Counted from the stretch's first letter, positions 2,292-59,127 are shown. The stretch: DNA of 64,000 nucleotides from Gammaproteobacteria bacterium (GCA_041496745.1 JBGQFF010000001.1:16675-80674), one strand, 5' to 3'. Translations and numbers: made by a program. The notes: generated from the sequence alone by a model not told the origin.

Positions 2292-2307
2292 CGCGGAGGG
2301 CAGGGGA

Positions 2308-2333: not shown

Positions 2334-2374
2334 GCTCCTTTGGGCCGCAGGCCTTCCTTTAGAATACCGGGCCT

Positions 2375-4976
<2,602 letters not shown>

Positions 4977-4993
<17 letters not shown>

Positions 4994-11559: not shown

Positions 11560-11590
11560 GCCGCGCGCGGCCCGCTGCGCCCCATCCCGC

Positions 11591-32209: not shown

Positions 32210-34023
32210 GCGCCGTGGCCGCTGCCCGCATCGCCGCGCCTTCCTTTGCGGCGCTGGAGAACGCGCTGCTCGCGTTGCTGTTCGTCGGCGCGGTGCTGCT
32301 GCCGATCGCCGAGATCGCACTGCGCGCGACGCTGCGCGTCGGCATCGAGGGCGTCGGCGCGATCGTGCAGCACCTGACGCTGGCGGTGGGCATGCTGGGC
32401 GCAGCGGTGGCGGCGCGCGAAGAGCGCCTGCTGACGCTCGCCGTCGCGGGATTCATCCGCGGGCGGGCGGCGCCCATCGCGCGCTTCCTGAGCGGCGCGG
32501 TCGGCGCCGCGGTCGCGCTGCTGCTGCTGCGATCGGCGCTGCAGTTCATGGCCGTGGAGCGCGCAGCGGGATCGCAGATGCTGGCGGGGGTGCCGTCCTG
32601 GCTGACGCTCCTGCCGCTGCCCGTGGGCTTCGCGCTCATCGCGCTGCGGCTGCTGCGGCACGCGGCGCCGGATCTTGCGTCACGCACCGGCGCGGCGGCG
32701 CTCGCCGCCGCGCTGTGCGCCTGGCTCACGCTCGCGCCGCCGCAGGGAACGCTGCTCGCCGCGGCGCTCGCCATCCTGTTTGCAGCGACCCTGCTCGGTG
32801 CGCCGATTTTCGCGGTCCTCGGGGGCTCGGCGCTGCTGCTGCTGCAGGCCGACGGCGTGCCGGCGGCTGCGGTTGCGGTCAACCATTACAGTCTGGTCAT
32901 CAACCCGTCTCTGCCGGCGATCCCGATGTTCACGCTCGCCGGCTACCTGCTGGCGGAAAGCCGCTCGCCCGGCCGGCTGGTCGAGCTGTTCGACGCGCTG
33001 TTCGGACGCTTGCGCGGCGGCGCGGCGCTGGTCACGGTGCTGGCCTGCACTTTCTTCACCTGCTTCACCGGCGCCTCGGGGGTGACGATCCTCGCGCTGG
33101 GCGGCCTGGTGATGCCCTTGCTCGCGTCCGCCGGCTACCGCCCGAAGGACGCGCTCGGGCTGATCACCGGCGCGGGCTTGCCGGGCGTGATCCTGATGCC
33201 GGCCCTGCCGCTGCTGCTGTACGCGATCGTCGCGCGCGTGGGCATCGAGGACATGTTCATCGGCGGCCTGCTGCCGGCGATGCTGATGCTGGGCGTGGTC
33301 GCGGGCTGGGGCGTCTGGCGCCAGCCGCGGCGGGCGGCGGGCGGCGCGCCGTTCTCGTGGCAGCGCGTGCGCGCCGCGCTGCGCGCGGCCAAGTGGGAAC
33401 TCAGCCTGCCGCTCGCGCCGATCGCCGCGCTGGCGAGCGGCGTTGCCACGCCGGTCGAGGCCGCCGCGGTCACGGCGCTCTACGCGCTGGTCATCGTCAC
33501 GCTCGTGCATCGCGACCTGCACCTCGCGCGCGACCTGCCGCGCGTGATCGCGGAGTGCGGGCTGCTGGTCGGCGGGATTCTCCTCGTGCTCGGCGTGGCG
33601 CTGTCGCTCACCAACTACATGGTGGACGCCGAAGTGCCCGACCAGTTGGTGGAATGGGTGCGCCAGTCGATCCACAGCCGCTGGGCCTTCCTGCTCGCGC
33701 TCAACGCGGTGCTGCTGCTGGCGGGCTGCGTCATGGACATCTACACCGCGATCGTGGTGCTGGCGCCGCTGGTTACGCCGCTCGGCCTCGCCTTCGGCGT
33801 GCACCCGGTGCACCTCGGCATCGTGTTCCTCGCCAACCTCGAACTCGGCTACCTCACGCCGCCCGTGGGCATGAACCTGTTCTTCTCCGCGTATCGCTTC
33901 GGCAAGCCGATCGCCGAGGTGTTCCGGGCGGTGCTGCCGCTTTTTGCGGTACTCGCGGCGGCCTTGGCGGTGGTGACCTACTGGCCCTGGCTCAGCACGG
34001 GGCTGCCAGCACTTTTCAAGTAA
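32206..34023 (+). CDS. TRAP transporter fused small/large permease (DctQ-DctM)
   Basis: A GTGA overlap links it to the upstream stop. The ~605-aa protein has a DctQ-like N-terminus and a DctM-like body (FTGASGVTILALGGLVMP, VFLANLELGYLTPPVGMNLF). Confidence 0.9.
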   Translation: MSAVAAARIAAPSFAALENALLALLFVGAVLLPIAEIALRATLRVGIEGVGAIVQHLTLAVGMLGAAVAAREERLLTLAVAGFIRGRAAPIARFLSGAVGAAVALLLLRSALQFMAVERAAGSQMLAGVPSWLTLLPLPVGFALIALRLLRHAAPDLASRTGAAALAAALCAWLTLAPPQGTLLAAALAILFAATLLGAPIFAVLGGSALLLLQADGVPAAAVAVNHYSLVINPSLPAIPMFTLAGYLLAESRSPGRLVELFDALFGRLRGGAALVTVLACTFFTCFTGASGVTILALGGLVMPLLASAGYRPKDALGLITGAGLPGVILMPALPLLLYAIVARVGIEDMFIGGLLPAMLMLGVVAGWGVWRQPRRAAGGAPFSWQRVRAALRAAKWELSLPLAPIAALASGVATPVEAAAVTALYALVIVTLVHRDLHLARDLPRVIAECGLLVGGILLVLGVALSLTNYMVDAEVPDQLVEWVRQSIHSRWAFLLALNAVLLLAGCVMDIYTAIVVLAPLVTPLGLAFGVHPVHLGIVFLANLELGYLTPPVGMNLFFSAYRFGKPIAEVFRAVLPLFAVLAAALAVVTYWPWLSTGLPALFK

Positions 34024-34089: not shown

Positions 34090-35733
34090 ATGAATGCCAT
34101 CGAGCACTCGAACGGCAGTCCCCGGCCCCTCAGGAAAATCCCCATCGTCGCGCAAGCGCCGCGCGCAGAGAGTGCGCCGAAGCCGCGCTCGATCGCGGGC
34201 AGAGCCCCCGACCTGCGGCGCGCGAGCGAGTCCGCAGGCGGGCACTACCGCGCCTACAAGCCGCGCCCGTTCACGCGCGAGGAGCGCGAGCGCACCACGA
34301 TCCTGTTCGGCGGCCTGCACTGGCGTGTCGAGCGCCTGATCCAGGGGGCAATGGAGAACCTCGGCTACCGCGCGCAGATCCTGCCCACCGCCACGCGCGC
34401 CGACCTGCTCACCGGGCGCGAGGTGGCCGACATCGGCCAGTGCTGCCCGACCAGTTTCACCACCGGCAACCTCGCCAACCACCTGAAGGAGCAGACGAGG
34501 AGCATCGGCGCGCAGGAGGTGGCGCAGAAGTACGTCTACGTCACCGCGGGCTCCTGCGGCGCCTGCCGCTTCGGCCAGTACCACCAGAGCTACGAGCTCG
34601 CGCTGCGCAACGTCGGGCTGGAATCCTTCCGCATGTTCCTGCTTGGCCAGGAAGGGCTGGACCAGGGAGAGGCGGCCGGCGGCGGCCTGGACCTCAACAT
34701 GCCGTTCACGCTCGGCGCGGTGTGGGCCATCGTGCTCTCGGACGTGATCCAGGACATGGAGTACCGCACGCGCCCCTTCGAGAAGAACCCGGGCGAGACC
34801 GAGCGCGTGACGCGCGAGGCGGTCGAGTACCTGTACGCGGTGTTCCGCAAGCGCCCCAATCGCGGCAGCAAGTGGGGCTCCATGCTGTGGCACTTCGGCA
34901 CCGACTACTTCGTCAAGGCGATGCGCGAAGTCCGGCAGCGCTACGACCGCATCGAGCTCGACCGCCTGCGCGTCAAGCCGGTGGTCAAGATCACTGGCGA
35001 GTTCTACCTGCAGACCGTGGAGGGCGAGCCGAACTACAACATCCACCGCTGGCTCGAGGCCGAGGGCGCGGAGGTGTATCCGGCGCCGATCACCGTATGG
35101 CTGGACTACCTGCTGCGGCTCGCCGGCCAGGAGTTCGAGGATCGCATCGGCATCGACCGCGCGGCGCGCCTGAAGCTCGGCGCGGTGCGCGGCATGCAGG
35201 GCCTGCTGCGCTGGACGCACTCGCGCATGCGCCGCGCGCTGGCCGACGTGCCGCACGAGCTGCCCGACCAGTACGAGTTGCGCTCGCTCGCCTCGCCCTA
35301 CTACCACAGCCGCCTGAACGGCGGCGAGGGCGACATGCTGGTGGGCAAGGCGCTGTGGGCCTACCACCACAAGAAGGCGCACATGACTTGCGAGCTCTCG
35401 CCCTATTCCTGCATGCCGAACACCATGAGCGTCGGCGCGATGGCGGCAGTGCTGGGCAAGTACCCGGACCTGCTGTACGCGCCGCTGGAGATCAAGGGCG
35501 ACGCGGAAGTAAGCGCGCTGTCGCGCTGCCAGATGATCCTCACGGAGGCCAAGAAACGCGCGCAGCGCGAATACGAAGCGGTGCTCGAGCGCACCGGCTT
35601 CGACGAGGCCGGGCTGTGCGACGCGTATGCGCGCCGCCCCGACCTGCACCTAGCGACCTACCGTGTGCCGCACGGCGATGCCGCCGGCACCGCGGCCAAC
35701 GTCGCGTTGCACCTGGCCGCCGGGAGTCACTGA
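34090..35733 (+). CDS. 2-hydroxyacyl-CoA-dehydratase D-component-like protein (BCR/HAD family subunit)
   Basis: An SD GGAGG precedes ATG 34090. Family motifs include TILFGGLHWRVERLI, DIGQCCPTSF, VTAGSCGACRFGQY, KITGEFYLQ and ELSPYSCMPN. Confidence 0.8.
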   Translation: MNAIEHSNGSPRPLRKIPIVAQAPRAESAPKPRSIAGRAPDLRRASESAGGHYRAYKPRPFTREERERTTILFGGLHWRVERLIQGAMENLGYRAQILPTATRADLLTGREVADIGQCCPTSFTTGNLANHLKEQTRSIGAQEVAQKYVYVTAGSCGACRFGQYHQSYELALRNVGLESFRMFLLGQEGLDQGEAAGGGLDLNMPFTLGAVWAIVLSDVIQDMEYRTRPFEKNPGETERVTREAVEYLYAVFRKRPNRGSKWGSMLWHFGTDYFVKAMREVRQRYDRIELDRLRVKPVVKITGEFYLQTVEGEPNYNIHRWLEAEGAEVYPAPITVWLDYLLRLAGQEFEDRIGIDRAARLKLGAVRGMQGLLRWTHSRMRRALADVPHELPDQYELRSLASPYYHSRLNGGEGDMLVGKALWAYHHKKAHMTCELSPYSCMPNTMSVGAMAAVLGKYPDLLYAPLEIKGDAEVSALSRCQMILTEAKKRAQREYEAVLERTGFDEAGLCDAYARRPDLHLATYRVPHGDAAGTAANVALHLAAGSH

Positions 35734-37901
35734 TGCTCACCGTCGGGCTGGATGTCGGCTCCACCACCGTCAAGGCATCGGTGGTGGAAGGCGGCGAAGT
35801 GCGCTGGAAGGACTACAAGCGCCACAGCACCAAGCAGGCCGAGATGGTGCTCGAATTCCTCGGGCGCATGCAAGCCGAATGCGGCCTCACGCCCGGCCGT
35901 GACCGGATTTTCCTCACCGGCTCGGGCGGCGGCATGCTCACGCCGCACCTGGGCGGCAAGTTCATCCAGGAGGTGGTGGCGGTTTCGGCCGCGGTGGAAA
36001 AGCTGCACCCGGGCGTCAACTTCGTCTCCGAGATCGGCGGCGAGGACATGAAGACGCTGTTTTTCACGCCGAGCGGCGACGGCAAGACGAAACAGGTCTA
36101 CATGCAGTCGGCCTGCAGCGGCGGCACCGGCACCTTCATCGAGAAGACCGCGCGCAAGCTGCAGATCGAGCCCGAGCGTCTGGCGCAGATGGACTATACG
36201 GGGCTGGAATTGCACAAAATCAGCTCCAAGTGCGGCATCTTCGCCGAGGCCGACGCCAACACGCTGGTGAAGGCCGGTGTGCCGGTGGAAGAAATCATCG
36301 CCAGCCTGTACGAGGCGGTCGTGTACCAGAACCTTGCGACGCTCACCAAGGGCAACACGCCGGCGCCGCAGGTGCTGCTGCTCGGCGGGCCGAACCTGTT
36401 CTTCAAGGGCCTGCAGCAGGCGTGGAAGCACCACCTGTGCAAGATCTGGGCCGAGCGCAAAGTGGCAGCGCCGGAGGGCGTCGGCCCGGAAGACCTGATC
36501 CAGGTGCCGAAGGAGGCGCTCTACTATGCCTGCCTGGGCTGCATCGAGATCGGCATCGGCGAAGCGCCTTCGGTGGGCGTGTACGCCGGCACCGGAAAGC
36601 TGAAGTGGTGGATCGAGCAGGGCCAGTGGGAGCAGAAAGCGAAGGACGGCGGCAAGGGGCTGGTGAAGAGCCCCGAGGACCTGGTGGCGTTCCTGGAACA
36701 GTACGGCGGCGATTGCCGCAGCACTGCGTGCACGCAGGACCTGCGCGCGTGCGCGGCGCCGGTGCTGGTGGGCTGCGACTTCGGCAGCACCACGGCCAAG
36801 GCGGTGGTGCTGTCCGCGGATCGCGAACTGCTTTTCGGCTGCTACGTACCGTCGAACGGCAACCCGATCGAGGACGCGAAGGGCCTGTTCCGCCAGGTCC
36901 GCGCCTCGGGCTTCGAGAGAATCGGCGGGCTCGCGGTCACCGGCTACGGCAAGGACCTGCTCAGGGACATCATCGGCGCGGACGTAGCGATCGTCGAGAC
37001 CGTGGCGCACGCCACCGCGGCGCTGCACTACATCCCCGACGCGGACGTGATCTGCGACGTCGGCGGCTGCGACGTGAAGATCATGATCCTGCGCCAGGGC
37101 ACGGTGGCCGACTTCCGCCTGAACTCGCAGTGCTCATCCGGCAACGGCGCCTTCCTGCAGGGTGTCGCCGAGCGCTACGACGTGCCGCTGCAGGACTACG
37201 CCGGGAAGGCCTTCGAGGCGCGCGCGATTCCCGCGCTCGCCATGGGCTGCGGCGTGTTCCTGCAGTCCGACATCGTCAACCAGCAGAGGAAAGGCTGGTC
37301 GGCGGAGGAGATCATGGCTTCGCTCGCCGCGGTGCTGCCGCTCAACGTGTGGGTATACGCGGGCCAGCTGCAGAACCTCGCCGCCGCGGGCCGCAAGTTC
37401 GTGCTGCAGGGCGGCACGCACCGCAACCTGGCGGTGGTGAAGGCGCAGGTGGATTTCATCCGCGAGAAGGTGCCCGATGCCGAGGTGGTGGTGCACCCGT
37501 ATTCCGGCGAGGCGGGCGCCATCGGCGCGGCGCTGTGCGCCGTGGACTGGATGAAGTCCGGCGCGGCGAGCCGCTTCCGCGGCTACGACACCATCGACAC
37601 CCTGGAATACACGAGCACCACCAACGAGCACACCACCTGCAACTGGTGCCCGGTCAATTGCAAGCGCACCTTCATCGACGTGCGCCTGCCCGAGGGCCAG
37701 GGCCGCTCCTGGAGCAAGGTGCCGCTGGCAGCGGGCTGGGAGCGCGTGATCAGCGGCAACTCCTGCCCCAAGGGGCTGCTCGAGGACGCGAACGAGATGC
37801 GCGTGGTGAAGGCGAAGCTGGAGGCGGTCAAGGATGCCCATCCCAACATTGGTGAGCTGGTTCGAGAAGGCGCCTTTCGGCAGGCCAGGGTCGAGGCCTG
37901 A
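35733..37901 (+). CDS. Double BadF/BadG/BcrA/BcrD-type ATPase (tandem HgdC-like activase) with a C-terminal Cys cluster
   Basis: A TGATG junction links it to the upstream gene. It has two ASKHA ATPase modules (GLDVGSTTVKA... and GCDFGSTTAKA...) with the cluster cysteines SKCGIFAEAD and MGCGVFLQSD. The C-terminus carries CNWCPVNC...NSCP. It is the C-terminal part of the artefactual ORF 34440-37901. Confidence 0.9.
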   Translation: MLTVGLDVGSTTVKASVVEGGEVRWKDYKRHSTKQAEMVLEFLGRMQAECGLTPGRDRIFLTGSGGGMLTPHLGGKFIQEVVAVSAAVEKLHPGVNFVSEIGGEDMKTLFFTPSGDGKTKQVYMQSACSGGTGTFIEKTARKLQIEPERLAQMDYTGLELHKISSKCGIFAEADANTLVKAGVPVEEIIASLYEAVVYQNLATLTKGNTPAPQVLLLGGPNLFFKGLQQAWKHHLCKIWAERKVAAPEGVGPEDLIQVPKEALYYACLGCIEIGIGEAPSVGVYAGTGKLKWWIEQGQWEQKAKDGGKGLVKSPEDLVAFLEQYGGDCRSTACTQDLRACAAPVLVGCDFGSTTAKAVVLSADRELLFGCYVPSNGNPIEDAKGLFRQVRASGFERIGGLAVTGYGKDLLRDIIGADVAIVETVAHATAALHYIPDADVICDVGGCDVKIMILRQGTVADFRLNSQCSSGNGAFLQGVAERYDVPLQDYAGKAFEARAIPALAMGCGVFLQSDIVNQQRKGWSAEEIMASLAAVLPLNVWVYAGQLQNLAAAGRKFVLQGGTHRNLAVVKAQVDFIREKVPDAEVVVHPYSGEAGAIGAALCAVDWMKSGAASRFRGYDTIDTLEYTSTTNEHTTCNWCPVNCKRTFIDVRLPEGQGRSWSKVPLAAGWERVISGNSCPKGLLEDANEMRVVKAKLEAVKDAHPNIGELVREGAFRQARVEA

Positions 37902-39063
37902 AGCGGCGCTTCAGACCGCGGGCGCGGCCAAGCCGCGCGCGCAGCTGCGCGTGGGCATCCCGCGCGTGCTCAACCTCTGGTCGACGCACCAGTTCTGGAT
38001 CGGCTTGCTCGGCGCGCTCGGCATCGACGCGCGCCGCATCCAGTTTTCCTCAGACAGCTCGGAGGAGCAGGCGCGCGAGTTCGGCAAGGGGCGCGGCACG
38101 GTGGACTGCTGCTACCCGGTGAAGTGCATGTCGGGGCACTACGGCGAGCTGATCGCGAATAAAAAGCGCCAGATCGATATCCTGCTTTCGCCGATGATCT
38201 ACTCGCTGCCCTCGGTGCTGAACGGGCACGTCGCGGTGTCGCTCGCCTGCCCGCGCGTAATGGCGGCACCGGAGAACATCAAGGCCGGTTTCCTGAAGGA
38301 AAAGGACGTGTTCGCGGAGAACGGCATCCGCTACGTCTCGCCGCTCGTTTCGCTGGGCGATCCGCCGCTGGTGCCGAAGCAGCTGTTCGAGGGCCTGCGC
38401 GACGTGATCCCGGGCCTGACTTTCGACGAAACGAAGCGCGCGGTGAAAGCGGGCTACGACGCGCTGGAATCCTTCAACCGCAGCCTGCGCGCCAAGGGGC
38501 GCGAGATCCTCGAGCAGTGCGCGCGCGCGGACAAGCCCTGCCTGCTGGTGCTGGCGCGGCCCTACCACATGGATCCGGGCATCGGCCACGAGATCGAGGT
38601 GGACCTGCAGGCCTACGGCTACCCGGTGCTGTGGGCCCAGTACCTGCCCACCGACCCCGATCTGCTGCAGTGGATGTTCGGGCCGGACATCGAGGCCGGG
38701 CACATCAAGTCGCCGTTCGACATCGCCGACGTCTGGCCCTCCTCGTATAGCGCCAACACCAACGAGATCCTGTGGGGCGCGAAGTACGCGGCGCGCCTGC
38801 CATGGATCGCCTGCGTGGTCAGGCTCTCGAGCTACGAGTGCGGCATGGACCAGCCGACGTATTCGCCGGTGCAGCAGATCGTCGAGCGCTCGGGGACGCT
38901 TTTCTTCTCGTTCCAGGACCTCGATTCCACCAAGCCGGCCGGCTCGGTGAAGATCCGCGTAGAAACCATCGCGCACTACCTGCAGAAGTTATCGGCGGAG
39001 ATCATCGCGAAGAAAAAAGCGGCGGGGCAGGCCGCATGCCCGCTCCTCGCGCCCTCCGCCTAG
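37834..39063 (+). CDS. Acyl-CoA dehydratase activase-related protein (DUF2229)
   Basis: It reads RVGIPRVLNLWSTHQFW...VDCCYPVKCMSGH...LARPYHMDPGIGHEI...LSSYECGMD. The start is uncertain: ATG 37834 overlaps the activase by 68 nt, and GTG 37951 is the alternative. Confidence 0.8.
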   Translation: MPIPTLVSWFEKAPFGRPGSRPEAALQTAGAAKPRAQLRVGIPRVLNLWSTHQFWIGLLGALGIDARRIQFSSDSSEEQAREFGKGRGTVDCCYPVKCMSGHYGELIANKKRQIDILLSPMIYSLPSVLNGHVAVSLACPRVMAAPENIKAGFLKEKDVFAENGIRYVSPLVSLGDPPLVPKQLFEGLRDVIPGLTFDETKRAVKAGYDALESFNRSLRAKGREILEQCARADKPCLLVLARPYHMDPGIGHEIEVDLQAYGYPVLWAQYLPTDPDLLQWMFGPDIEAGHIKSPFDIADVWPSSYSANTNEILWGAKYAARLPWIACVVRLSSYECGMDQPTYSPVQQIVERSGTLFFSFQDLDSTKPAGSVKIRVETIAHYLQKLSAEIIAKKKAAGQAACPLLAPSA

Positions 39064-39929
39064 CGCTCCTCCTCGTCCTCGCGGCGGCGGTCGCCTGGAT
39101 CGCCGCGGCGCTGCTGGCGCGCCCCGCTCCGGCGCACGCGTTCTTCGCGGCCGAGCGTCCCGGCGTGCAGGTCATCGCGCACCGCGGCGGAGCGGGACTG
39201 CGGCCCGAGGAGACGTTCGAGGCTTTCGCCCACGCCGCCGGGCTCGGCGCGGACATGTTCGACCTCGACGTGCGCGCCACGGCCGATGGCGCCATCGTCT
39301 GCCTGCACGATCCGACGGTGGATCGCACCACCGATGGCCAGGGGCCGGTCGCAGCGCTGAGAGTGGACGAGTTGCGCAAGCTCGACGCGGGATACCGCTG
39401 GACGGACGATGGCGGCAAGACTTATCCGTACCGCGGTAAGGGTGTCCAGGTGCCGACCTTGGAGGAAGTCTTCAAGCGCCACCCGCGCATGCGCGTGGTG
39501 GTGGAGATGAAGGTCAGGACTGCGGAGTTCGCGCGGTCTCTGTGCAAGCTCACGCGCGGAGCGGGCATGTCGCAACGCGCTCTGGTTGCGTCCTTCGACT
39601 ACGGCACCCTGGATGCCTTCCGCCAGGCCTGTCCCGAGGTCGCCACCTCGATGAGCCTGCGCGAAGCGCAGGTCTTCTTCGGTCTCAGCGTCTTGCGCCT
39701 CTCGGCCGCCTACAGCCCTGACGCGGTCGCCCTTCAGGTCCCCGAGCGCTTCAGCGGCGTCGAGGTACTGACGCCCGTCCTGGTCCGCGCAGCGAAGAAC
39801 CGCAACCTTCGTGTCCACGCGTGGACGATCAACGACGAGGAAGCGATGCGACGACTGGTGCGCGAAGGCGTGGACGGCATCATGACCGACCGCCCGGACC
39901 GGCTGCTGGCCTTGCGCGACCGGCTGTAA
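39036..39929 (+). CDS. Glycerophosphodiester phosphodiesterase family protein with N-terminal signal/anchor
   Basis: MPAPRALRLALLLVLAAAVAWIAAALLA is followed by VIAHRGGAGLRPEETFEAF...DLDVRATADGAIVCLHD...VPTLEEV. It is the C-terminal part of ORF 38772-39929. Confidence 0.88.
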   Translation: MPAPRALRLALLLVLAAAVAWIAAALLARPAPAHAFFAAERPGVQVIAHRGGAGLRPEETFEAFAHAAGLGADMFDLDVRATADGAIVCLHDPTVDRTTDGQGPVAALRVDELRKLDAGYRWTDDGGKTYPYRGKGVQVPTLEEVFKRHPRMRVVVEMKVRTAEFARSLCKLTRGAGMSQRALVASFDYGTLDAFRQACPEVATSMSLREAQVFFGLSVLRLSAAYSPDAVALQVPERFSGVEVLTPVLVRAAKNRNLRVHAWTINDEEAMRRLVREGVDGIMTDRPDRLLALRDRL

Positions 39930-39941
39930 GCGATCTGTAGG
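39924..39941 (+). promoter_or_regulatory. Direct-repeat motif copy 2 (CTGTAAG-CGAT-CTGTAGG) upstream of the SARP-type regulator gene
   Basis: Two heptamers repeat with an 11-bp period. The motif overlaps the GDPD stop codon and lies 36-57 nt upstream of the likely regulator ATGs (39977, 39998). Confidence 0.45.
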
Positions 39942-42900
39942 TGGCAGCCGTGCCGCGATGGCGGCACGATGCCGCCATGGGCGCCGGGCATGAGAAGATG
40001 GTTTCAGGGGGTGCCGCAGACTTGGGCGACCTGAAGCCGCAGAGCGTCGCTTTCGCAAAGACTACGCGCCCGGCAATCGGATCGGCGATGCCGCGCGAGC
40101 GGCTGTTCGCGCGCCTGGACGGCTCGCCCGGGCGCACGGTGGCCTGGATCTCCGGCCCGCCCGGCGCCGGCAAGACCACGCTCGCGGCGAGCTACATCGA
40201 TGCGCGCCGCTACCGCTGCCTCTGGTACCAGGTGGATGCGGACGATGCCGATGTGGCGACGTTCTTCCACTACCTCGGCCACGCGGCGCGCAAGCTCGAC
40301 GCCGCCGCGCCGCTCGAGTTGCCGGGGGCCGCCGCGTTGCAGGATGTGGACCTGGCCTCGCTCGCGCGCAGCTTCTTCCGCCGCCTGTTCGCGCGCGCCA
40401 AGGCGCCTTTCGCCCTGGTGCTCGACAACCTGCACGAGGTGCCGGCGGAGAGCGCGCTGCACGCGGCGCTCGAGGCCGGCGTGAGCCAGGTCCCCAAGAA
40501 CTGCTGCGTCATCGTCACCAGCCGCAACGAACCGCCTGCGTCGCTGGCGCGCGCGCGCGTCACCGGCGAGATGGTGTGCGTGGGGTGGGAGCAGTTGCGC
40601 CTGGAGCCGGCGGAACTGGCCGGGATCGCCAAGCTGCGCGGGCACGAGCTGGGGGGCGAGGCGGTGGCGCAACTCGCCGAGCGCACGCAGGGCTGGGCGG
40701 CCGGCCTGGTGCTGATGCTGGAGCACTCCAAGGTCGCCGGGCGCATCGTCGAGCTGCCCGGCGATGCCGCGCCGAAGGTGATTTTCGATTACCTCGCGGG
40801 CGAGATCTTCGACAGGTTCGAAGCGCGCACGCGCGAATTCCTGCTGCGCATCGCCTGCCTGCCGCGCATGAACGCGGAGGTGGCGCAGGCGCTCACGGGC
40901 GAGGACAAGGCGGGCCGGCTGCTGCTCAACCTCGCGCTCAACGGCTATTTCGTGAACGAAGTGCAGTCGGAGGCAGGCAGGATGTTCCAGCTGCACCCGC
41001 TGCTGCGCGACTTCCTGCGCGGCCGCGCCGCGCAGGAATTGCCCGAGGCTCTCGCGCACCCCTGGCTGCAACGCGCGGCCGCGCTGCTGCGCGGGGCCGG
41101 ACAGGCGGAGGATGCGGTGGCCCTGCTCGCCGAGAGCCGCAGCTGGGCCGAAGTGGCGCGCATCGCCGCGGAAGAAGCCGGCGCGATGCTCGCGCAGGGG
41201 CGCAGCGCCACGGTGGAAGCCTGGCTCGACATGCTGCCGCCGGAGTTCCTCGAGCGCGATCCGCGGCTGCTGCACGCGGCGGGCGTGTGCCGCGCGCACG
41301 CCAGCCCGCGCGCGGCGCAGCGCGCGTTCGAGCAGGCCTACGCGGGTTTTCAAGCGGCGCGCGACACGCGCGGCATGGTGCAGAGCGCCTGCGGCGCGAT
41401 CGACGCCCTGATGTTCGAATTCGACGACCTGGCGCCGCTCGAGCGCTGGAGCGCGGTGCTGGCCGGCTTGCTCAAGGACGCGGACGCGCCAAGCGCGGCG
41501 GCGCTGGTGCGGGCGATGCTGCTGCGCGATCCCGGCAATGCTGCGCTCGGCGAGTGGCTCGCGCGCGCCGAGCGCGGCGGCGGCGGAGCGTCGCTGGCGC
41601 GCGCCACCGCCGCGCTGCTGCACGGCGACCTGGCCGCCGCGCGGGCCGCGCTGGAGAGCCTGCGCGCGCGAGAGCACAATCCGCCGCCGCGCGCCGGCAT
41701 CGCGACGGCCATGGTGAGCGCCCTGCACGAACTGCTGGCGGGCTCGCACGCGGCGGCGCTGGCCGCGGCGCGTGCGGGGCTGGCGGTGGCGGATGCGGAA
41801 GGCCTGCACGCCTGGGACCAGTGGCTGCGCGCAATCGCGGCGGCGGCGGCGCTGGGCGCGGGCGAACGCGACGCCGCGCGCGCCGAGCTGCAGCGTGTGG
41901 AAGCGGGCGGCGCGCGGCTGCGCCGCGGCGATCGCGCGCTCGTCCACTATCTGCGCGGCTGGCTCGCGCTGCTCGACGCGGATGGCGCCGGCGCGCGACG
42001 CGAAGCGAAAACCGCGCTCGCGCTGGCGATCGAGACCGGCGTTCCGCTGCTCGAATGCATGGCGCGCATCGCTTTAGCGCAGTCGCTCGGCGACGAGGGC
42101 GACCGGCGCGCGCGCGAGTCGCAGCTGCGCGCCGCGGAGGGGCTCGCCGAGCGCTCACGCAGCGACCTCCTGCGCTACTGCGCGCGCCTGGCAGCGGCGA
42201 GCGCGGCACGCGAGGCTGGCGACGAAGCCGCGGCGCTCGAGGCCCTGCGCGGCGCGTTCGCGCTCGGGCGCGAGCACGGCTACCGGCACGCGCCGTGGTG
42301 GCAGGCGGCGGCAGTGGCGGAGTTGTGCGCGCTGGCCCTGCGGCATGGCATCGAGCCGGACTACGCGCGCTCGCTGGTGCGCTCGCGGCGCCTCGCGCCG
42401 CGCGTCGCGCCGCTGCGCCTGCGCGACTGGCCCTGGCCGTTCCGCGTACGCGCGCTCGGCCGTTTCGAGCTCCTGCGCGACGGCTCGCCGGTGGAGTTCT
42501 CGGGCAAGGGCCCGGGCCGGCCGATGGAGCTGCTCAAGGTGCTGCTGGCGCACGGCGGGCAGGACGTGCGCGCGGACCAGATCGCCGACGCGCTGTGGCC
42601 GCATGTCGACGCCGATTACGCGCACAAGTCCTTCACCGCAACCTTGCACCGCCTGCGGCGCCTGCTCGGCGAGGACGACGCCGTGCTGCTGCGCGATTCG
42701 CGCTTGAGCCTCAACACGGCGCTGGTGTGGGTGGACGGTTGGGCGCTGGAGCAGGTCTGCGCCGCCATCGACGAGGCGCTACGCGCGCCGGCCGGCGCAG
42801 TGCCGGACGCGGAGTTGCGCGCGCTCGCCGACGAGGCGCTCGCGCTGTACCGCGGGCCGTTCCTGCCCGACGAGTCGGAGCAGCCGAGCTATATCGCCTG

Positions 42901-43195
42901 CCGCGAGCAGATCCGCTCGCGGCTGCTGCGCTGCCTGGCGCGCATTGCGCGGCGCTGGGAGGACGCGGGGCAGCCCGAGGCGGCCGCCGACTGCTACCTG
43001 CGCTGCATCGAGGCCGATCCCTTGTTCGAGGCGCCTTACCGCAACCTGATGCTGAGCTACCAGCGCGCCGGCGACCAGGTCGAAGCGCGCGCGACCTACG
43101 AGCGGCTGCGCACCATCCTCTCGGCGCGGCTGAAAACCGCACCTTCGCCGGAGACGCAGGCCGTGTACGCCAGCCTCAAGGCGAGCGGCCCCTGA
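39941..43195 (+). CDS. Large ATPase-TPR regulator (MalT-like, STAND class) with a C-terminal OmpR/SARP-type winged helix and a bacterial transcriptional activation domain (BTAD)
   Basis: The N-terminus has FAKTTRPAIGSAMPRERLFARLD and Walker A GPPGAGKTTLA. A long helical repeat region follows. The C-terminus reads VRALGRFELLRDGSPVEF...LHRLRRLLG...ALALYRGPFLPDE...DPLFEAPYRNLMLSYQRAGDQVEARATYERL. The true start is probably ATG 39977 or 39998. Confidence 0.85.
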   Translation: MAAVPRWRHDAAMGAGHEKMVSGGAADLGDLKPQSVAFAKTTRPAIGSAMPRERLFARLDGSPGRTVAWISGPPGAGKTTLAASYIDARRYRCLWYQVDADDADVATFFHYLGHAARKLDAAAPLELPGAAALQDVDLASLARSFFRRLFARAKAPFALVLDNLHEVPAESALHAALEAGVSQVPKNCCVIVTSRNEPPASLARARVTGEMVCVGWEQLRLEPAELAGIAKLRGHELGGEAVAQLAERTQGWAAGLVLMLEHSKVAGRIVELPGDAAPKVIFDYLAGEIFDRFEARTREFLLRIACLPRMNAEVAQALTGEDKAGRLLLNLALNGYFVNEVQSEAGRMFQLHPLLRDFLRGRAAQELPEALAHPWLQRAAALLRGAGQAEDAVALLAESRSWAEVARIAAEEAGAMLAQGRSATVEAWLDMLPPEFLERDPRLLHAAGVCRAHASPRAAQRAFEQAYAGFQAARDTRGMVQSACGAIDALMFEFDDLAPLERWSAVLAGLLKDADAPSAAALVRAMLLRDPGNAALGEWLARAERGGGGASLARATAALLHGDLAAARAALESLRAREHNPPPRAGIATAMVSALHELLAGSHAAALAAARAGLAVADAEGLHAWDQWLRAIAAAAALGAGERDAARAELQRVEAGGARLRRGDRALVHYLRGWLALLDADGAGARREAKTALALAIETGVPLLECMARIALAQSLGDEGDRRARESQLRAAEGLAERSRSDLLRYCARLAAASAAREAGDEAAALEALRGAFALGREHGYRHAPWWQAAAVAELCALALRHGIEPDYARSLVRSRRLAPRVAPLRLRDWPWPFRVRALGRFELLRDGSPVEFSGKGPGRPMELLKVLLAHGGQDVRADQIADALWPHVDADYAHKSFTATLHRLRRLLGEDDAVLLRDSRLSLNTALVWVDGWALEQVCAAIDEALRAPAGAVPDAELRALADEALALYRGPFLPDESEQPSYIACREQIRSRLLRCLARIARRWEDAGQPEAAADCYLRCIEADPLFEAPYRNLMLSYQRAGDQVEARATYERLRTILSARLKTAPSPETQAVYASLKASGP

Positions 43196-43837: not shown

Positions 43838-45499
43838 TCAACGCAGCAGCCTGTCGGCCTGCTGGATCTCCGCGGGTTGCAACGCGGCCTTGACCTTTTC
43901 GATCCGGGCCTTGGCCTCCGCGTTCCCGGCGCGCGCCGCGCGGCTGAACCAGACGTAGGCCTGGAAATTGTTTTGCGGGACGCCGCGCCCGGCGGCGTAC
44001 ATCTCGCCCAGCGCCAACTGCGCCTTGGCATTGCCCTGGTCGGCGGCCTTGCGGGTCAGCGCCAGGCCTTCGGCGTCGTTGCCGCGCGCGCGCGCCTGCT
44101 CGGCGAGCGCCAGCAGATCCGGCGCGGGTGGCGGCGCGGGCGCCGGCTCCGCCGGCTTCTTCGGCGGCGGCGCGACGGGCTCGGCGCGGCGCGCCTCTTC
44201 CTGGCGCGTGCGCTCCAGCCCGGCTTGCTTCCTGGCCTCGGCGTCGCGGCGCGCGCGCTCGGCATCGGCTTGCTTGCGAGTCGCGGCCTCGCGGCGCACG
44301 AGCTCCTCGGCGCGCTTCTTCTCCAGGTCGGCCTGCTGCTGCTGTTGCAGTCGCTGCTGCTCCTCGCGCTGACGTTGGCTCGCGGCCTCAACCTCGCGCT
44401 GCTGCTGGTTCTCGAACGCGCGCCGCTGGGATTCAAAGCGCTCCCGCTCGTCGGCGAACTTCTTGCGTTCCTCGGTCGGCACCAGCCACAGCACCACCGC
44501 GGCGGCTGCGACCAGTGCGCCCAGGCCGGCCCAGATGACCGGCCCGCGCAGCGATGCGGCCGGCGCCGTTGCGGCGGGCGGCGGCGCGCTTCGCGTCACG
44601 GGTTTGGCTGCGGAAGCGAGTTCCCCGCGCCACTCGGCGATGCTCTGCGGGCGATCCTTCTCGGCGAACTGGAGCGCGTGGTCGATGGCTTTGAGCAAGC
44701 CTGCCGAATAGCGCCCGCTGCCGATGGTGACGGCCGGCACCAGGATCTCGAGCGTGCTGCCGAGGATGCCCTTGCTGCGTGCGATCGCATCCATCGGCGC
44801 GATGCCGGCGATGGCGCGGTAGCAGGTGGCGCCCAGGCTGTAGAGGTCGGTCCACGGGCCCTGGTTCTCGCCGCTCGAGTAGTACTGCTCGAAGGGCGCG
44901 TAGCCGGGCGCCACCAGGATGGTGACGGTACGGGCGTGGCCCAGCGAATGGCGCGCGGAGCCGAAATCGAGCAGCACCGGCGAGCCGTCGGCGCGGATGT
45001 GGATGTTGTCCGGCTTGATGTCGCGGTGAATGAACCCCGCGTTGTGCACCAACTCCAGCCCGTCGAGGATCGGCAGCACCACGCGCATCAGCTCCTCCTC
45101 AGGGAGCGTGCGGCGCCGCTCGAGCAGCGAGGCCAGGTTCTCGCCATCCTCGAAGCGCATCACCATGTAGGCGGTGTTGTTGTGCTCGAACACCGAGTGC
45201 ACGCGCACGATGTTCGGGTGGTCGAAGCGCGCGAGCGTCCGCGCCTCGCGGATGAAGCGGTCCAGCCCCCAGCGGTAGCGCTCGCTCTGCTCCTCGGTGC
45301 GCGAGCGCACCGAGGCGTCCGCCCGGCGCGTGGCGACGTCCACCGGCAGGTATTCCTTGATCGCCACCGACTGGTCGAGGTTGGTGTCGCGCGCCAGGTA
45401 GGTGATGCCGAAGCCGCCCTGGCCGAGGACGCGCTCCAGCACGTACCAGTGCAGCCGGTACTGCGCCGGCAGCGCGTCTGGGTAGGAGGGGTCGCTCAT
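43838..45499 (-). CDS. Transmembrane Ser/Thr protein kinase with extracytoplasmic coiled-coil and Sel1/TPR repeats
   Basis: The Hanks kinase motifs are GQGGFGITYLA, AIKEY, HRDIKPDNI, DFGSA and APGYAPFEQ. The TM span is VIWAGLGALVAAAAVVLWLV. An E/Q/R-rich segment follows, and the C-terminus has Sel1-type repeats (AQLALGEMYAAGRGVPQN..AYVWFSRAA). Confidence 0.92.
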   Translation of the reverse strand: MSDPSYPDALPAQYRLHWYVLERVLGQGGFGITYLARDTNLDQSVAIKEYLPVDVATRRADASVRSRTEEQSERYRWGLDRFIREARTLARFDHPNIVRVHSVFEHNNTAYMVMRFEDGENLASLLERRRTLPEEELMRVVLPILDGLELVHNAGFIHRDIKPDNIHIRADGSPVLLDFGSARHSLGHARTVTILVAPGYAPFEQYYSSGENQGPWTDLYSLGATCYRAIAGIAPMDAIARSKGILGSTLEILVPAVTIGSGRYSAGLLKAIDHALQFAEKDRPQSIAEWRGELASAAKPVTRSAPPPAATAPAASLRGPVIWAGLGALVAAAAVVLWLVPTEERKKFADERERFESQRRAFENQQQREVEAASQRQREEQQRLQQQQQADLEKKRAEELVRREAATRKQADAERARRDAEARKQAGLERTRQEEARRAEPVAPPPKKPAEPAPAPPPAPDLLALAEQARARGNDAEGLALTRKAADQGNAKAQLALGEMYAAGRGVPQNNFQAYVWFSRAARAGNAEAKARIEKVKAALQPAEIQQADRLLR

Positions 45500-55564: not shown

Positions 55565-56447
55565 CTGGACATCCGATCGGCAACTGCCGGGGTTCGAGGC
55601 GAAGACGCTCGAGTTTCCCGACGACTACGACGGCCGCGTGGTCGCCACCCTGGTGCGCCTGCCCGCGGGTGCCGCGCAGCGCGGCGCCGTGCTCTACGTG
55701 CACGGTTTCGTGGACTATTTCTTCCAGCGCCACATGGCCGAGCGGTTCGCGGCCGAGGGCTACGCCTTCTACGCCCTCGACCTGCGCAAGCACGGCCGCT
55801 CGCTCTTGCCGCACCAGCATCCCTGCTTCTGCAAGGACGTCGCCGAGTACTGCGCCGACATCACGCGCGCGCTCGAGGAGATCGGCGGGCCGGTGCTGCT
55901 GGCGGGGCATTCGACCGGCGGGTTGGTCTGCGCGCTCTACGCGAGCCAGGGGAAGCGCAGGGAACAGGTGACGGCGCTGTGGCTTAACAGCCCGTTCTTC
56001 GACTGGAAAGTGACGTCGTTCAAGCGCGCGCAGCTCGGCGTCGCCGCGTTCGCCGGCCACGCGTTTCCGTTTCTCAACGATCCAAAAGCGCTATCGCCGG
56101 CCTACGTGCGCAGCCTCCACCGAGAGTTCGGCGGTGAGTGGGACTTCGACCTGAAGCTGAAACCCCTGTACGGTTTCCCGGCTTACTTCGGCTGGATCGG
56201 GGCGATCCTCGCCGCGCAGGCGAAGGTGCATGCCGGCCTCGAGATCAACTGTCCGGTGCTGACCATGCATTCGGACGAGGCGGACATCGTGCTCGACTGG
56301 CGGCACGTCGCGCGCTGGGGCCGCACGCTCGGGCGAGAAGCGGCGGTGCTCGCTTTCCCGGGCGGGCTGCACGACCTGGTGCTGTCGCGGCGCGAGATCC
56401 GCGACGCGGTGTTCAGGGAGTTTTTTTCCTGGGCCGCACGAACATAG
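55557..56447 (+). CDS. Alpha/beta hydrolase (lysophospholipase/monoglyceride-lipase-like)
   Basis: It has VLYVHGFVDYFF and the nucleophile elbow LAGHSTGG. ATG 55557 overlaps the queG end. Confidence 0.85.
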   Translation: MSDWTSDRQLPGFEAKTLEFPDDYDGRVVATLVRLPAGAAQRGAVLYVHGFVDYFFQRHMAERFAAEGYAFYALDLRKHGRSLLPHQHPCFCKDVAEYCADITRALEEIGGPVLLAGHSTGGLVCALYASQGKRREQVTALWLNSPFFDWKVTSFKRAQLGVAAFAGHAFPFLNDPKALSPAYVRSLHREFGGEWDFDLKLKPLYGFPAYFGWIGAILAAQAKVHAGLEINCPVLTMHSDEADIVLDWRHVARWGRTLGREAAVLAFPGGLHDLVLSRREIRDAVFREFFSWAART

Positions 56448-56448
56448 A

Positions 56449-59127
56449 GTGACGGAGCAGTTGCTGCGCGAGCCCTTCAGGCTGCCGCTCGCCTTTTTCG
56501 CCTCGGGCATGGCGGCGCTCCTGTTCCAGGTGCTGTGGTTCCGCGCGCTCGGCCGCGTGCTCGGAAATACAGTCTGGGCGGGCGCGCTGGTCCTCACCGC
56601 GTTCATGCTCGGCATGGCGATCGGCGGCCTGCTCGCCGCGCGCTGGGCGCGGCGCATCCGCAATCCCGCGCGCGCTTTTGCGCTCGCCGAGATCACGGTG
56701 GCGGTCACGGGGAGCCTGCTGGTCTGGGGCCTCCCGGTTCTGGAACCGGTCGTCGGGCAGTGGCTCTCGCCGCTCGCCGATCATTCTACGGCGATCGCGG
56801 GCGCGCGCCTCGCGCTCGCCCTTGGCGCCATGCTCTTGCCGACGATCGCGATGGGCACGACGCTCGCGCTTGGTGTGCGTGTGCTTGCGCACAAGGAAAC
56901 CACGCGCGCGCTCGGTGTGCTGTATGCGGCGAACACCTTCGGCGCCTGCCTCGCGCCGCTCGTCGCCGAGTATTACCTGATCGGCGCACTCGGACTGCGC
57001 AGCACGGCGCTGGTCGCCGCAAGCCTCAACGGCCTGGCGGCAGCGCTCGCCCTGACGCAGCCGCAAGGTGCTGCCGCCGTGCCGACGCCAGCGCCAAGCA
57101 CCCACCCCTCCCCGCAACGCCTGCTGTTCGCTGCTGCCGCCGCGGGCGGCCTCGCGCTCGCGCTCGAGGTGATCTGGTTCCGTCTGCTGATCCTCTATGC
57201 GCCGGGCAGCGATACGACCTTCGCGCTCATGCTGACCGTGGTCCTGCTTGGAATTGCGATCGGCGGCGCGCTCGCCCCGCTGCTTGCCCGGCTGCAACTG
57301 GTGTGGATCACCATAGGCAGCAGCCTCGCCGTTGTCGTCGGCTACCTGCTCGCCGGGTGGACCTTCAGCCCGGGCAAGCCAGATCTGATCCACTATGCGG
57401 TTCCCTTGATGCTGCCGGCGGCGATCCTGTCGGGCTCATTGTTCACGCTGCTGGGCGCGGAGCTGCGCGCCGATGCGCAGAACCCGCAGCCCGCGATCGG
57501 CGTTCTCACGACCGCGAACACGCTCGGCGCCGCGTGCGGGGCGGCGCTCGCGGGCCTGGTGCTGCTGCCGCGCCTGGGCATCGAATGGAGCCTGTTCGCA
57601 CTCGCCGCGGGTTATGCGCTGCTGTCGCTCCTCGTGGCGAAGCCCGCGAAGATAGCGCTGCCGCTCGCCGCGGCGGCGGCCGGCTTGCTGCTGTTCCCGT
57701 TCGGACGCATGGACATGCATCTCGCGGCGGCGGCTCTCCCGTATCAGCTGATCGACGACTCGAAGGTAGTGCAGGTCACGCAAGGCCCGACGACGACCCT
57801 GCAGCTGCTCAAGCGCGAGCGTTTCGGCGAGGCGGTGGCGTGGCGGCTGCTGACCGACAGCTATTCGATGACGACGATCGATCGCCAGGCGGTCCGCTAC
57901 ATGCAGATGTTTGCCTGGCTGCCCCTCGCCCTGCATCCCGAGCCGCGGCGCGCGCTGCTCATCAGCTATGGCGCGGGCAGCACCGCGCAGGCGCTGTTGA
58001 GCGAGCCGCAGTTGCGCCAGCTCACCGTGGTCGACGTCTCGCCGGAGATCCTCGGCGCAAGCGCGCTCGTTCACGGCAAGCGCGACCCGCTGCAGGACCC
58101 GCGGGTGCAGCTCGTCCTGGAAGACGGGCGCCAATACCTGCGCCTGCATCCCGAGCAGTTCGACATCATCACTGCGGAGCCGCCGCCGCCGCTGATCGCA
58201 GGCGTGGTAAACCTCTATACGCGCGAGTATTTCATGGCGGTTGCCGGGCGGCTCGCCCCCGGCGGACTCGCGACCTACTGGCTGCCGGTCCCGCAATTCA
58301 AGCCGCAGGGCGCGCGCGCGGTGGTCCGCGCCTTCTGCGACGCGTTTCCCGATTGCACGCTTTGGGCCGGCGGGCGGCGCAACTGGATCCTGATGGGCGG
58401 TCGCGAGTTCAGGCATCGCCCGGGCGCGCAGCATTTCTCCCGCCTGTGGCGCGACGCGGCGGCGGCGCCGCGCATCGCCGCGAGCGGGCTCGAGCATCCC
58501 GTCCAGCTCGGCGCCACCTTTCTTGCGGACGCCGGGCAGCTGAGCCGCTGGGTTGGCGGGACGCCGGCGTTGACCGACGACCATCCGAAGCGCATCGCGC
58601 CCGAAACGGACCTCGAGAGCCCGGTGGGCGAATACTCGGCGTGGCTCAAGCCCGACGACGCGCGCCGCCGCTTCCAGGAGTCGCAGTGGGTGGCAAGGCA
58701 CTGGCCCGCCCAGTTCACCCAGGGGAGCCTGCCCTTCTTCGCGATCCAGCCGGTACTCAATGGCGAGATCGCGCCCGACCCCATGCGGAACGTGCCGCAG
58801 GTGGCCGCGATCCTGCGCCATACCGACCTGCGCATCCCGGTCCTATGGCTGCTCGGGAGCGACGTCACCGAGCAGGAGATCGTGAACCGGCGGCTGGCGG
58901 CCGAGGGCTATCGCCCGGACTACGCCTATGCGCTCGGCGTTCGCGCTCTTGCGGAGCGCGACTACGCCACGGCCGGGGAGCTCTTTGCCGAGGCCGCCAA
59001 GCGCGGGCCTGGCCCGGCCGGCGCGCTCGCCGCGTACTCCATGTGCCGTGCGGGGCTGCACCAGCAGGCGGCAGCGGCGACAGGGGCTGACAAGCTCGCG
59101 CCCGAGCTGCGCTGCTGGAGCAATTAG
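56449..59127 (+). CDS. Fused polytopic membrane domain / spermidine-synthase-like methyltransferase fold / C-terminal helical-repeat protein
   Basis: The ~450-aa N-terminal region is hydrophobic (MFS-like). The middle reads LLISYGAGSTAQALL...VVDVSPEIL...LEDGRQYL...FDIITAEPPPP. The C-terminus is TPR-like. Confidence 0.8.
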   Translation: MTEQLLREPFRLPLAFFASGMAALLFQVLWFRALGRVLGNTVWAGALVLTAFMLGMAIGGLLAARWARRIRNPARAFALAEITVAVTGSLLVWGLPVLEPVVGQWLSPLADHSTAIAGARLALALGAMLLPTIAMGTTLALGVRVLAHKETTRALGVLYAANTFGACLAPLVAEYYLIGALGLRSTALVAASLNGLAAALALTQPQGAAAVPTPAPSTHPSPQRLLFAAAAAGGLALALEVIWFRLLILYAPGSDTTFALMLTVVLLGIAIGGALAPLLARLQLVWITIGSSLAVVVGYLLAGWTFSPGKPDLIHYAVPLMLPAAILSGSLFTLLGAELRADAQNPQPAIGVLTTANTLGAACGAALAGLVLLPRLGIEWSLFALAAGYALLSLLVAKPAKIALPLAAAAAGLLLFPFGRMDMHLAAAALPYQLIDDSKVVQVTQGPTTTLQLLKRERFGEAVAWRLLTDSYSMTTIDRQAVRYMQMFAWLPLALHPEPRRALLISYGAGSTAQALLSEPQLRQLTVVDVSPEILGASALVHGKRDPLQDPRVQLVLEDGRQYLRLHPEQFDIITAEPPPPLIAGVVNLYTREYFMAVAGRLAPGGLATYWLPVPQFKPQGARAVVRAFCDAFPDCTLWAGGRRNWILMGGREFRHRPGAQHFSRLWRDAAAAPRIAASGLEHPVQLGATFLADAGQLSRWVGGTPALTDDHPKRIAPETDLESPVGEYSAWLKPDDARRRFQESQWVARHWPAQFTQGSLPFFAIQPVLNGEIAPDPMRNVPQVAAILRHTDLRIPVLWLLGSDVTEQEIVNRRLAAEGYRPDYAYALGVRALAERDYATAGELFAEAAKRGPGPAGALAAYSMCRAGLHQQAAAATGADKLAPELRCWSN

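Follow-up and report, generated by a model that had tools for sequence, protein, structure and literature searches.

The PlsA/PlsR/Ger family of lipid reductases was identified in 2021–2022 and is central to two open problems, the oxygen-free synthesis of plasmalogens and alkyl ethers, and the identity of the producers of the brGDGTs (branched glycerol dialkyl glycerol tetraethers), which serve as palaeoclimate proxies. Its members are built from four modules, Act1, Act2, Red1 and Red2 (PMC12838417), and a BBD... architecture has been described for the PlsA/PlsR/Ger type (PMC13159169). PlsA/PlsR is the anaerobic plasmalogen synthase, encoded by two genes in C. perfringens and by one in Enterococcus, Lactococcus and Bifidobacterium (PMC12838417); Listeria reportedly carries a plsA/plsR orthologue and makes plasmalogens anaerobically (PMC9702350); and Ger is a glycerol ester reductase, with which 1-alkyl glycerol ethers were formed anaerobically in E. 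coli (PMC13159169). BLAST homologues of PlsA/PlsR have been noted in the family Burkholderiaceae, and a PlsAR/Ger homologue has been proposed to account for how brGDGT ethers form in Solibacter (PMC13023045). Here we describe three adjacent genes (positions 34090–39063) within a 64,000-nucleotide (nt) window of ~69% G+C, the whole stretch of DNA analysed, from a Gammaproteobacteria bacterium (GCA_041496745.1 JBGQFF010000001.1:16675-80674). Together they probably encode a single enzyme of this family, an ester-to-ether reductase for which we infer a lipid substrate. The family itself is known; new are its three-gene form, an overprinted start codon, six supernumerary cysteines and a host that is probably aerobic.

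All three open reading frames (ORFs) lie on the plus strand and are open over the spans given in a preliminary description of the locus, namely ORF1 (34090–35733, 547 residues, with GGAGG located 6 nt before its ATG), ORF2 (35733–37901, 722 residues, comprising two PF01869 stretches and a C-terminal cysteine-rich extension) and ORF3 (37834–39063, 409 residues, PF09989 DUF2229). One base is common to the ORF1 stop and the ORF2 start (TGATG), and ORF2 and ORF3 overlap by 68 nt, ORF3 being in the +1 frame relative to ORF2. The cysteine motifs to which that description drew attention are all found in the translations (QCCPTSF, SCGACRFGQY and YSCMPN in ORF1; SKCGIF, MGCGVF and CNWCPVNC...NSCP in ORF2; DCCYPVKC and YECGMD in ORF3). 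Its proposal of an enzyme of the benzoyl-CoA reductase/2-hydroxyacyl-CoA dehydratase (BCR/HAD) superfamily with a tandem activase is supported by the domain matches of ORF2 and the predicted folds of ORF1 and ORF3. Domain mapping agrees with it for ORF2 (BcrAD_BadFG) and ORF3 (DUF2229), but not for ORF1, which had been labelled HGD-D.

ORF2 matches PF01869 BcrAD_BadFG over two stretches (E = 1.4e-65, 221.9 bits against a cut-off of 31.5) as well as TIGR00241 CoA_E_activ (2e-64, 217.5 bits, cut-off 125.4), and among PDB sequences it recovers 1hux (1.2e-22), together with 9gai_D and 4eht at ~1e-22. Its residues 346–605 align to HgdC (1hux) without gaps around the ligands, C467 and C506 corresponding to HgdC C127 and C166, and C128 and C167 occupy the same ligand positions in the first domain. 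In the published HgdC structure the bridging [4Fe-4S] cluster is held by these two cysteines from each of two monomers. Four ligands of an inter-domain [4Fe-4S] cluster are predicted in ORF2 (C128 at 36114, C167 at 36231, C467 at 37131 and C506 at 37248, spanning 36114–37250 on the plus strand), all of them kept in 107 of 107 homologues, and judged by its sequence ORF2 is a tandem ATPase of the HgdC/BcrAD type that carries both halves in one chain. The bridging positions suggested earlier, C167 (SKCGIF) and C506 (MGCGVF), were rightly chosen but incomplete, since the predicted ligands are four and C128 and C467 had not been named.

Beyond the second ATPase domain, ORF2 carries a CX2CX3C...x34...C motif (37638–37768, plus strand; C636, C639, C643 and C678), which is probably an additional iron-sulfur or other metal site. 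Its conservation extends to 107 of 107 split and fused homologues and to two further fused proteins, P0162 and P0189, and the fused protein of Listeria has it as CNLCSNTC...C. On this alignment evidence it belongs to the family as a whole, as the motif of the linker that joins the second ATPase domain to DUF2229, and it was retained by ORF2 after the fission of an ancestral gene. The earlier observation of an extra cysteine cluster on the activase is valid in comparison with stand-alone HgdC/BcrAD activases, but the cluster is no peculiarity of this locus.

The two remaining subunits are related to known enzymes chiefly by their folds. ORF3 is detected by PF09989 DUF2229 over model positions 1–216 of 218 (2.1e-41, 142.4 bits, cut-off 29.4). 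ORF1 has no match in NCBIfam and none in Pfam, at E ≤ 0.01 or even at E ≤ 10, and its counterparts in Listeria and Brevibacillus are likewise without a match to PF06050 HGD-D, a model that detects neither ORF1 nor ORF3. Searches of PDB sequences returned nothing relevant for ORF3 as a single sequence and nothing relevant for ORF1 as a single sequence or as a family profile, with no match to HAD or BCR. The HGD-D label attached to ORF1 therefore does not stand as Pfam membership, and finds support only at the level of the fold. More than 2200 homologues of ORF1 were found, and the label given to this family by JGI is generic only.

For ORF1 and ORF3, AlphaFold2 models were generated from close-homologue alignments and reached medium confidence (predicted local distance difference test, pLDDT, 69.9 and 68.7; predicted template-modelling score, pTM, 0.75 and 0.73, respectively), and the low-confidence loops of both coincide with the cysteine motifs. 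When the ORF1 model was compared with PDB structures using Foldseek, the first three ranks were taken by 3o3m_A, the alpha subunit of (R)-2-hydroxyisocaproyl-CoA dehydratase, and by 7yzm_A and 6eno, both double-cubane cluster protein (DCCP), at probabilities of 0.93–1.0 and TM-scores of 0.26–0.43, and 9gai_E (3-methylbenzoyl-CoA reductase) was also among the matches; E-values are weak (6e-3 to 1.4e-2 for the first three ranks, 6e-3 to 0.14 in all). For ORF3 the best match was 8s02_B of BzdNO (4e-5), followed by 7yzm_A (DCCP), 3o3n_B (HadC), 6eno and 9g87_B at probabilities of 0.99–1.0, with MbdON also represented. A catalytic-subunit fold of the HAD/BCR/DCCP kind for the Pfam-less ORF1 family, and a HAD/BCR beta-like fold for ORF3, are supported by these models, not proven by them, and the two proteins would form an alpha/beta-like pair of the HAD/BCR/DCCP superfamily. 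A direct comparison of the two families by hhalign was weak (E = 0.07, probability <1%), yet it still paired their core C-x-P motifs (C118/P120 with C93/P95), a correspondence that is suggestive only.

Two further features of the ORF1 family were noted. The first ~55 residues of ORF1 (34090–34254) are rich in Pro, Arg and Ala, are modelled with pLDDT <50 and are poorly conserved even among close relatives; about the same length of N-terminal sequence is missing from distant homologues, whose alignments begin near residue 50. In addition, an ORF1-like domain occurs in the 1271-residue protein P0163 together with a GltD-like module (Fer4_20 + Pyr_redox_2) and a 2x[4Fe-4S] ferredoxin domain, without ATPase pairing. 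This fusion may represent an NAD(P)H-driven, ATP-independent electron feed to an ORF1-type catalytic domain.

Cysteine conservation was assessed in at most 78 close and 82 distant homologues. Family-wide cysteines are C118 (34441), C156 (34555), C159 (34564) and C441 (35410) in ORF1; C128, C167, C441, C467, C506, C636, C639, C643 and C678 in ORF2; and C93 (38110), C139 (38248) and C336 (38839) in ORF3, ORF1 C156 being replaced by Gly in Listeria. A second set is confined to the clade of close relatives: ORF1 C119, C434 and C480 are found in 34–35 of 35 close homologues and in none of 82 distant ones, ORF3 C92, C98 and C229 in 78 of 78 and none of 58, and ORF3 C236, C327 and C402 are also clade-only and present in most close homologues. 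Thus the motifs quoted in the preliminary description are conserved family-wide at their core positions, but their remaining cysteines, such as C119 and C92, are particular to the clade. Two of the clade-only residues form CC doublets with core cluster ligands inside those very motifs, and the set accrues stepwise through out-groups at 47% (L166) and 49% (L167) identity. At the six positions the out-group residues are N, L and V (ORF1 C119, C434 and C480) and P, L and L (ORF3 C92, C98 and C229). A Cys-rich environment is also known from the O2-tolerant [NiFe] hydrogenases, whose proximal [4Fe-3S] cluster is held by six cysteines. It is conceivable, if rather improbable, that the six supernumerary cysteines remodel both active-site iron-sulfur clusters, into either a Cys-rich oxygen-tolerant form or a larger one of double-cubane type as in DCCP, enabling ester-to-ether reduction, a radical chemistry that otherwise is strictly anaerobic, under aerobic conditions. 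Were this true, an abundant group of uncultured soil Burkholderiales would be an unrecognised bacterial source of ether lipids.

In a working model of the enzyme, the chemistry would be that of the family, an ATP-dependent, iron-sulfur, radical-type reaction that turns the sn-1 acyl ester of a glycerolipid into either an alkyl ether or the vinyl ether of a plasmalogen. ORF2 (Act1 and Act2) would serve as the electron-injection module, an intramolecular pseudo-dimer with one [4Fe-4S] cluster held by C128/C167 and C467/C506, which takes up an electron and whose potential is lowered by ATP hydrolysis in the two ASKHA domains. The electron may then pass through the C636–C678 site, which probably acts as a relay or holds a second cluster. 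ORF3 (Red1) and ORF1 (Red2, PlsR-like) would constitute a heterodimeric catalytic core resembling HAD alpha/beta, with predicted cluster sites at C93/C139/C336 of ORF3 and C118/C156/C159/C441 of ORF1. In this core, chemistry at the bound clusters would reduce the carbonyl of the sn-1 ester, and the ether would result from dehydration or from a further reduction step.

All four modules (two ATPases, DUF2229 and a second reductase domain) are contiguous at the locus, and module by module it is colinear with fused homologues. The fused ‘2-hydroxyacyl-CoA dehydratase’ of Listeria monocytogenes (1475 residues) aligns with ORF2 over residues 1–633 (31% identity, E = 7e-94), with ORF3 over 670–979 (25%, 2e-27) and with ORF1 over 994–1412 (24%, 4e-23). 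An exhaustive search with ORF1 yielded the fused proteins P0189 (1579 residues, to which ORF2, ORF3 and ORF1 align at 4–685, 719–1076 and 1078–1541) and P0162 (1623 residues), the latter fused in the order of the window, ORF1 first; chromosome-scale records of cultured organisms came from a tblastn search of a plasmid collection. Brevibacillus laterosporus shows the two-gene arrangement of plsA->plsR type, a 1168-residue ATPase-ATPase-DUF2229 gene followed by a 545-residue ORF1-like gene (42%, 40% and 34% identity). The order given earlier for fused homologues, ATPase-ATPase-DUF2229 and then a fourth domain, is indeed that of the Listeria protein and of P0189. Relative to these the locus is split and permuted, as had been proposed, but the permutation is not peculiar to it, for the ORF1-first order recurs in ~140 loci.

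This distribution was traced in two scans. One genome per species was scanned with a pattern, PF[GS]C, that omits the PYSC variant of the window and which consequently recovers distant relatives only, giving 80 loci at 37–41% identity to ORF1; close relatives were taken from a metagenome scan. The distant loci are mostly from Acidobacteriota (Bryobacterales, Terriglobia), Bryobacterales/Solibacter being the nearest out-group, and others belong to Ignavibacteria, Dadabacteria, Poribacteria, Zixibacteria, Thermoleophilia and Thermodesulfobacteriota. Close relatives, where the source names them, are Burkholderiales or Betaproteobacteria, and NCBI names the homologues ‘acyl-CoA dehydratase activase-related protein’. 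The order ORF1, ORF2, ORF3 on one strand holds in every distant locus with all three parts (~60 distant loci, in addition to ~80 close ones), and ORF2 and ORF3 form a single reading frame in ~55 of 58 distant loci. Because the order is kept and the frame is single at this distance, the ORF1-first two-gene operon is, on present sampling, both old and widespread, and the ancestral form of the subfamily would have been such an operon, with ORF1 followed by a fused ATPase-ATPase-DUF2229 gene. Overall, the arrangements seen are complete fusion and the two-gene form, each of them in both orders, and the three-gene form. The sole recurrent extra gene among distant loci, common in those of Acidobacteriota, is an inserted gene of ~160–180 residues, PhnB/glyoxalase-like by eye (consensus MAGKVKAVPEG.HTITPHL...AIEFY.KAFGA...PDGKVMHA.LKIGDS), of which one or two copies lie between the ORF1-like and ATPase genes of L004, L007, L011, L012, L018, L027, L042, L055, L058 and L064.

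By this comparison, the only lineage-specific feature of the gene arrangement is the fission between ATPase and DUF2229, whose junction occupies 37820–37901 on the plus strand (a GGAGG Shine-Dalgarno sequence at 37820–37824, the ORF3 ATG at 37834 and the ORF2 TGA at 37899–37901). The split is seen in four long contigs of relatives, in the 49%-identical out-group L167 and in 80 metagenome contigs of 72–93% identity. That a 68-nt overlap with a change of frame resembles an indel error, and that distant relatives have a single gene here, might suggest a sequencing or assembly frameshift or a decaying pseudogene, and with it an artefactual three-gene structure. However, ~80 independently assembled relatives share this frame relation and start codon, ORF2 and ORF3 are both conserved at full length with every core cysteine kept, codon periodicity is intact, continuing in ORF2 within the overlap, and gene callers working independently list DUF2229 proteins of ~400 residues that stand alone, so that the comparative data effectively refute this possibility. 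Programmed +1 ribosomal frameshifting, yielding a fused ATPase-DUF2229 protein beside free ORF2, is the other alternative at this boundary, and would be in keeping with the +1 frame of ORF3 in 80 of 81 close relatives, with the strong nucleotide conservation of the overlap and with an ancestral state that was a fusion. We nevertheless regard it as very improbable. Among close relatives the ORF2 stop is not fixed but falls between 79 nt ahead of the DUF2229 start and 74 nt beyond it, leaving no conserved configuration of shift site and stop, and gene calls put DUF2229 44 nt beyond the ATPase gene's end in L167 and 23 nt downstream in L082/L083, where an upstream in-frame ATG is present too. In contrast, the equivalent of position 37834 is a start codon in 70 of 70 readable unique junctions (ATG in 40, GTG in 30), usually with GGAG ~9 nt before it. 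Dual coding accounts for the nucleotide conservation: in 72 unique sequences three third-position sites of ORF2 do not vary, namely the start-codon T of ORF3 together with the G and T beneath W9–F10, and the ORF3 alignment shows no variation at M1, W9 or F10. That ORF3 initiates independently at ATG 37834, its short N-terminal tail being overprinted (predicted peptide MPIPTLVSWFEK), is supported because an ATG or GTG with its GGAG is fixed in position and the synonymous sites of ORF2 are constrained. A start at GTG 37951 was rejected, as both the upstream ATG/GTG and W9–F10 constrain those sites, and comparison with relatives thereby settles a boundary that had been left open. The most plausible course of events is that the ATPase-DUF2229 gene of the Burkholderiales-type lineage was split by a change of frame within the linker between the domains, ORF3 now being translated from its own Shine-Dalgarno sequence and conserved ATG/GTG and overprinting the last 22 codons of ORF2.

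The substrate calls for a similar weighing. An ATP-dependent reductase or dehydratase of the BCR/HAD/DCCP type with the same architecture could act on something other than a lipid, a CoA thioester or small molecule perhaps imported by the adjacent tripartite ATP-independent periplasmic (TRAP) transporter, and be unrelated to ether lipids, and we hold this to be a less probable but serious alternative. The NCBI name of the homologues says just that they are activase-related, the best structural matches are enzymes of CoA esters and DCCP, the trio shows low identity to the Pls protein of Listeria, and the fourth core cysteine of ORF1, C156, means that the active-site cluster may differ. As for the transporter, most TRAP systems import small organic acids, but the one found here belongs to the rare TatT type, ~2% of TRAP systems, whose TatT component binds long-chain fatty acids (PMC11713862). 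A gene for glycerophosphodiester phosphodiesterase (GDPD) recurs downstream, and no CoA-ligase, CoA-transferase or other CoA-pathway gene lies beside the trio in the loci inspected. Moreover, within the literature found, the four-module architecture with its linker cysteine motif is described only for the lipid reductases PlsA/PlsR/Ger.

Several points weigh against assigning the trio to ester-to-ether lipid reduction. Listeria is the sole plasmalogen producer whose fused homologue was compared, and identity to it is just 24–31%; neither the Burkholderiales clade nor the ORF1-first subfamily has a characterised member; the literature search gave no report of ether lipids for such organisms; and PlsA and Ger are at present indistinguishable from sequence (PMC13274423). 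The host, with a Rieske oxygenase gene in the window, is probably aerobic, whereas the members of the family known so far are sensitive to oxygen. The TRAP and GDPD genes adjoin the trio in just 17–29% of relatives, with GDPD apparently extracytoplasmic, and the models of ORF1 and ORF3 are of medium confidence (pLDDT ~69) with weak Foldseek E-values. With these reservations, a lipid reductase of the PlsA/PlsR/Ger family is the reading we favour.

Upstream of the trio, on the same strand, the four-component TatT-type TRAP transporter (30294–34023) comprises TatT (30294–31202; PF16811 TAtT, 4e-76), a DctP-like protein (~31124–32209; PF03480) and a fused DctQM (32119–34023; PF04290 + PF06808). 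It is separated from ORF1 by 66 nt, a gap in which no terminator-like site was seen on the plus strand, and its genes are probably co-transcribed with the trio. They adjoin the trio in eight of 28 close relatives (~29%) and look like an insertion that travels with it; in the syntenic relative L001 they are missing and GGT abuts ORF1 directly. Downstream, the GDPD gene (39036–39929, plus strand; PF03009, 1e-46; start and N-terminus taken from the sequence) overlaps the end of ORF3 by 28 nt, encodes a hydrophobic N-terminal signal or membrane anchor (MPAPRALRLALLLVLAAAVAWIAAALLA...) and probably closes the operon. It follows the trio in nine of 53 close relatives (17%, 57–78% identity), as well as in L084, and close relatives have no other gene in common downstream of the trio. 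A lipid role would suit both neighbours, neither of which is universal.

The wider neighbourhood is one of conserved core chromosome, with KdsB, H+-pyrophosphatase and GGT upstream and two TctC genes and MiaA further downstream. Between the GDPD and TctC genes lie a 1084-residue AAA/NPHP3_N + Trans_reg_C + BTAD regulator (39941–43195, plus strand) and a Ser/Thr kinase with Sel1 repeat (43838–45499, minus strand), both missing from L001, the regulator following GDPD in L087 too. Elsewhere in the window, a VTT/DedA-type membrane domain is fused to a pyridine-nucleotide-disulphide oxidoreductase (11513–13726, plus strand), and a major facilitator superfamily (MFS) transporter to a spermidine-synthase-like domain (56263–59127, plus strand). 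In the 47%-identical out-group L166, a divergent TetR-family regulator gene (4713–5333, minus strand) lies just upstream of the ORF1 homologue; a TetR/AcrR regulator has been reported upstream of pls in E. faecalis (PMC9702350). Near the trio of L167 there is an FAD_binding_4/FAD-oxidase_C gene (2127–3509, minus strand), from a broad family that includes alkylglycerone-phosphate synthase.

These results bear upon how such loci are recognised and used. A large and mostly uncultured set of soil bacteria, including Acidobacteriota (Bryobacterales), Ignavibacteria, Poribacteria and Burkholderiales, has a second reductase gene that Pfam does not detect. BB-D homologues of Acidobacteriota and Proteobacteria have been treated as Ger-like (2026 sponge preprint), and screens by domain architecture of this kind would score such loci as lacking a second reductase domain, because it is encoded by a separate upstream gene undetected by Pfam, and may misread the type of product. 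The extra invariant cysteines beside cluster ligands, taken together with a probably aerobic host, offer a testable handle on the oxygen tolerance of this enzyme class, which is also relevant to plasmalogen production in aerobic culture. Tolerance of every arrangement seen should likewise help the design of expression constructs and the definition of domain boundaries.

Among the known systems, PlsA/PlsR of C. perfringens (CPE1194/1195, Q8XL47/Q8XL48) has the same four modules as the trio and, compared by way of Listeria, shares its bridging-cluster cysteines, the CX2CX3C...C linker and three core cysteines per reductase domain. It differs in that the trio is Red2-first and made of three polypeptides rather than one or two, has a fourth Red2 core cysteine (C156) and six clade-specific ones, and resides in what is probably an aerobic soil betaproteobacterium. 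Ger (T. maritima Tmari_0479; D. alkenivorans SHJ90043; Sahonero-Canavesi et al. 2022), likened here by its description, combines a BB-D core with a reductase-like sequence in a single polypeptide, whereas in the ORF1-first subfamily the second reductase domain is encoded by a gene of its own, which lies upstream and is invisible to Pfam. With HadBC/HadI, HgdAB/HgdC, BzdNOPQ/MbdONPQ and DCCP/DCCP-R the trio has in common the ligands of the HgdC C127/C166 type, the predicted catalytic fold and, presumably, the ATP-driven injection of low-potential electrons. Unlike the activases of those systems, which are homodimers or heterodimers, that of the trio is a covalent tandem and has an additional Cys-rich C-terminal module, and the substrates reported for the PlsA/PlsR/Ger branch are lipid esters only, rather than CoA thioesters or small molecules.

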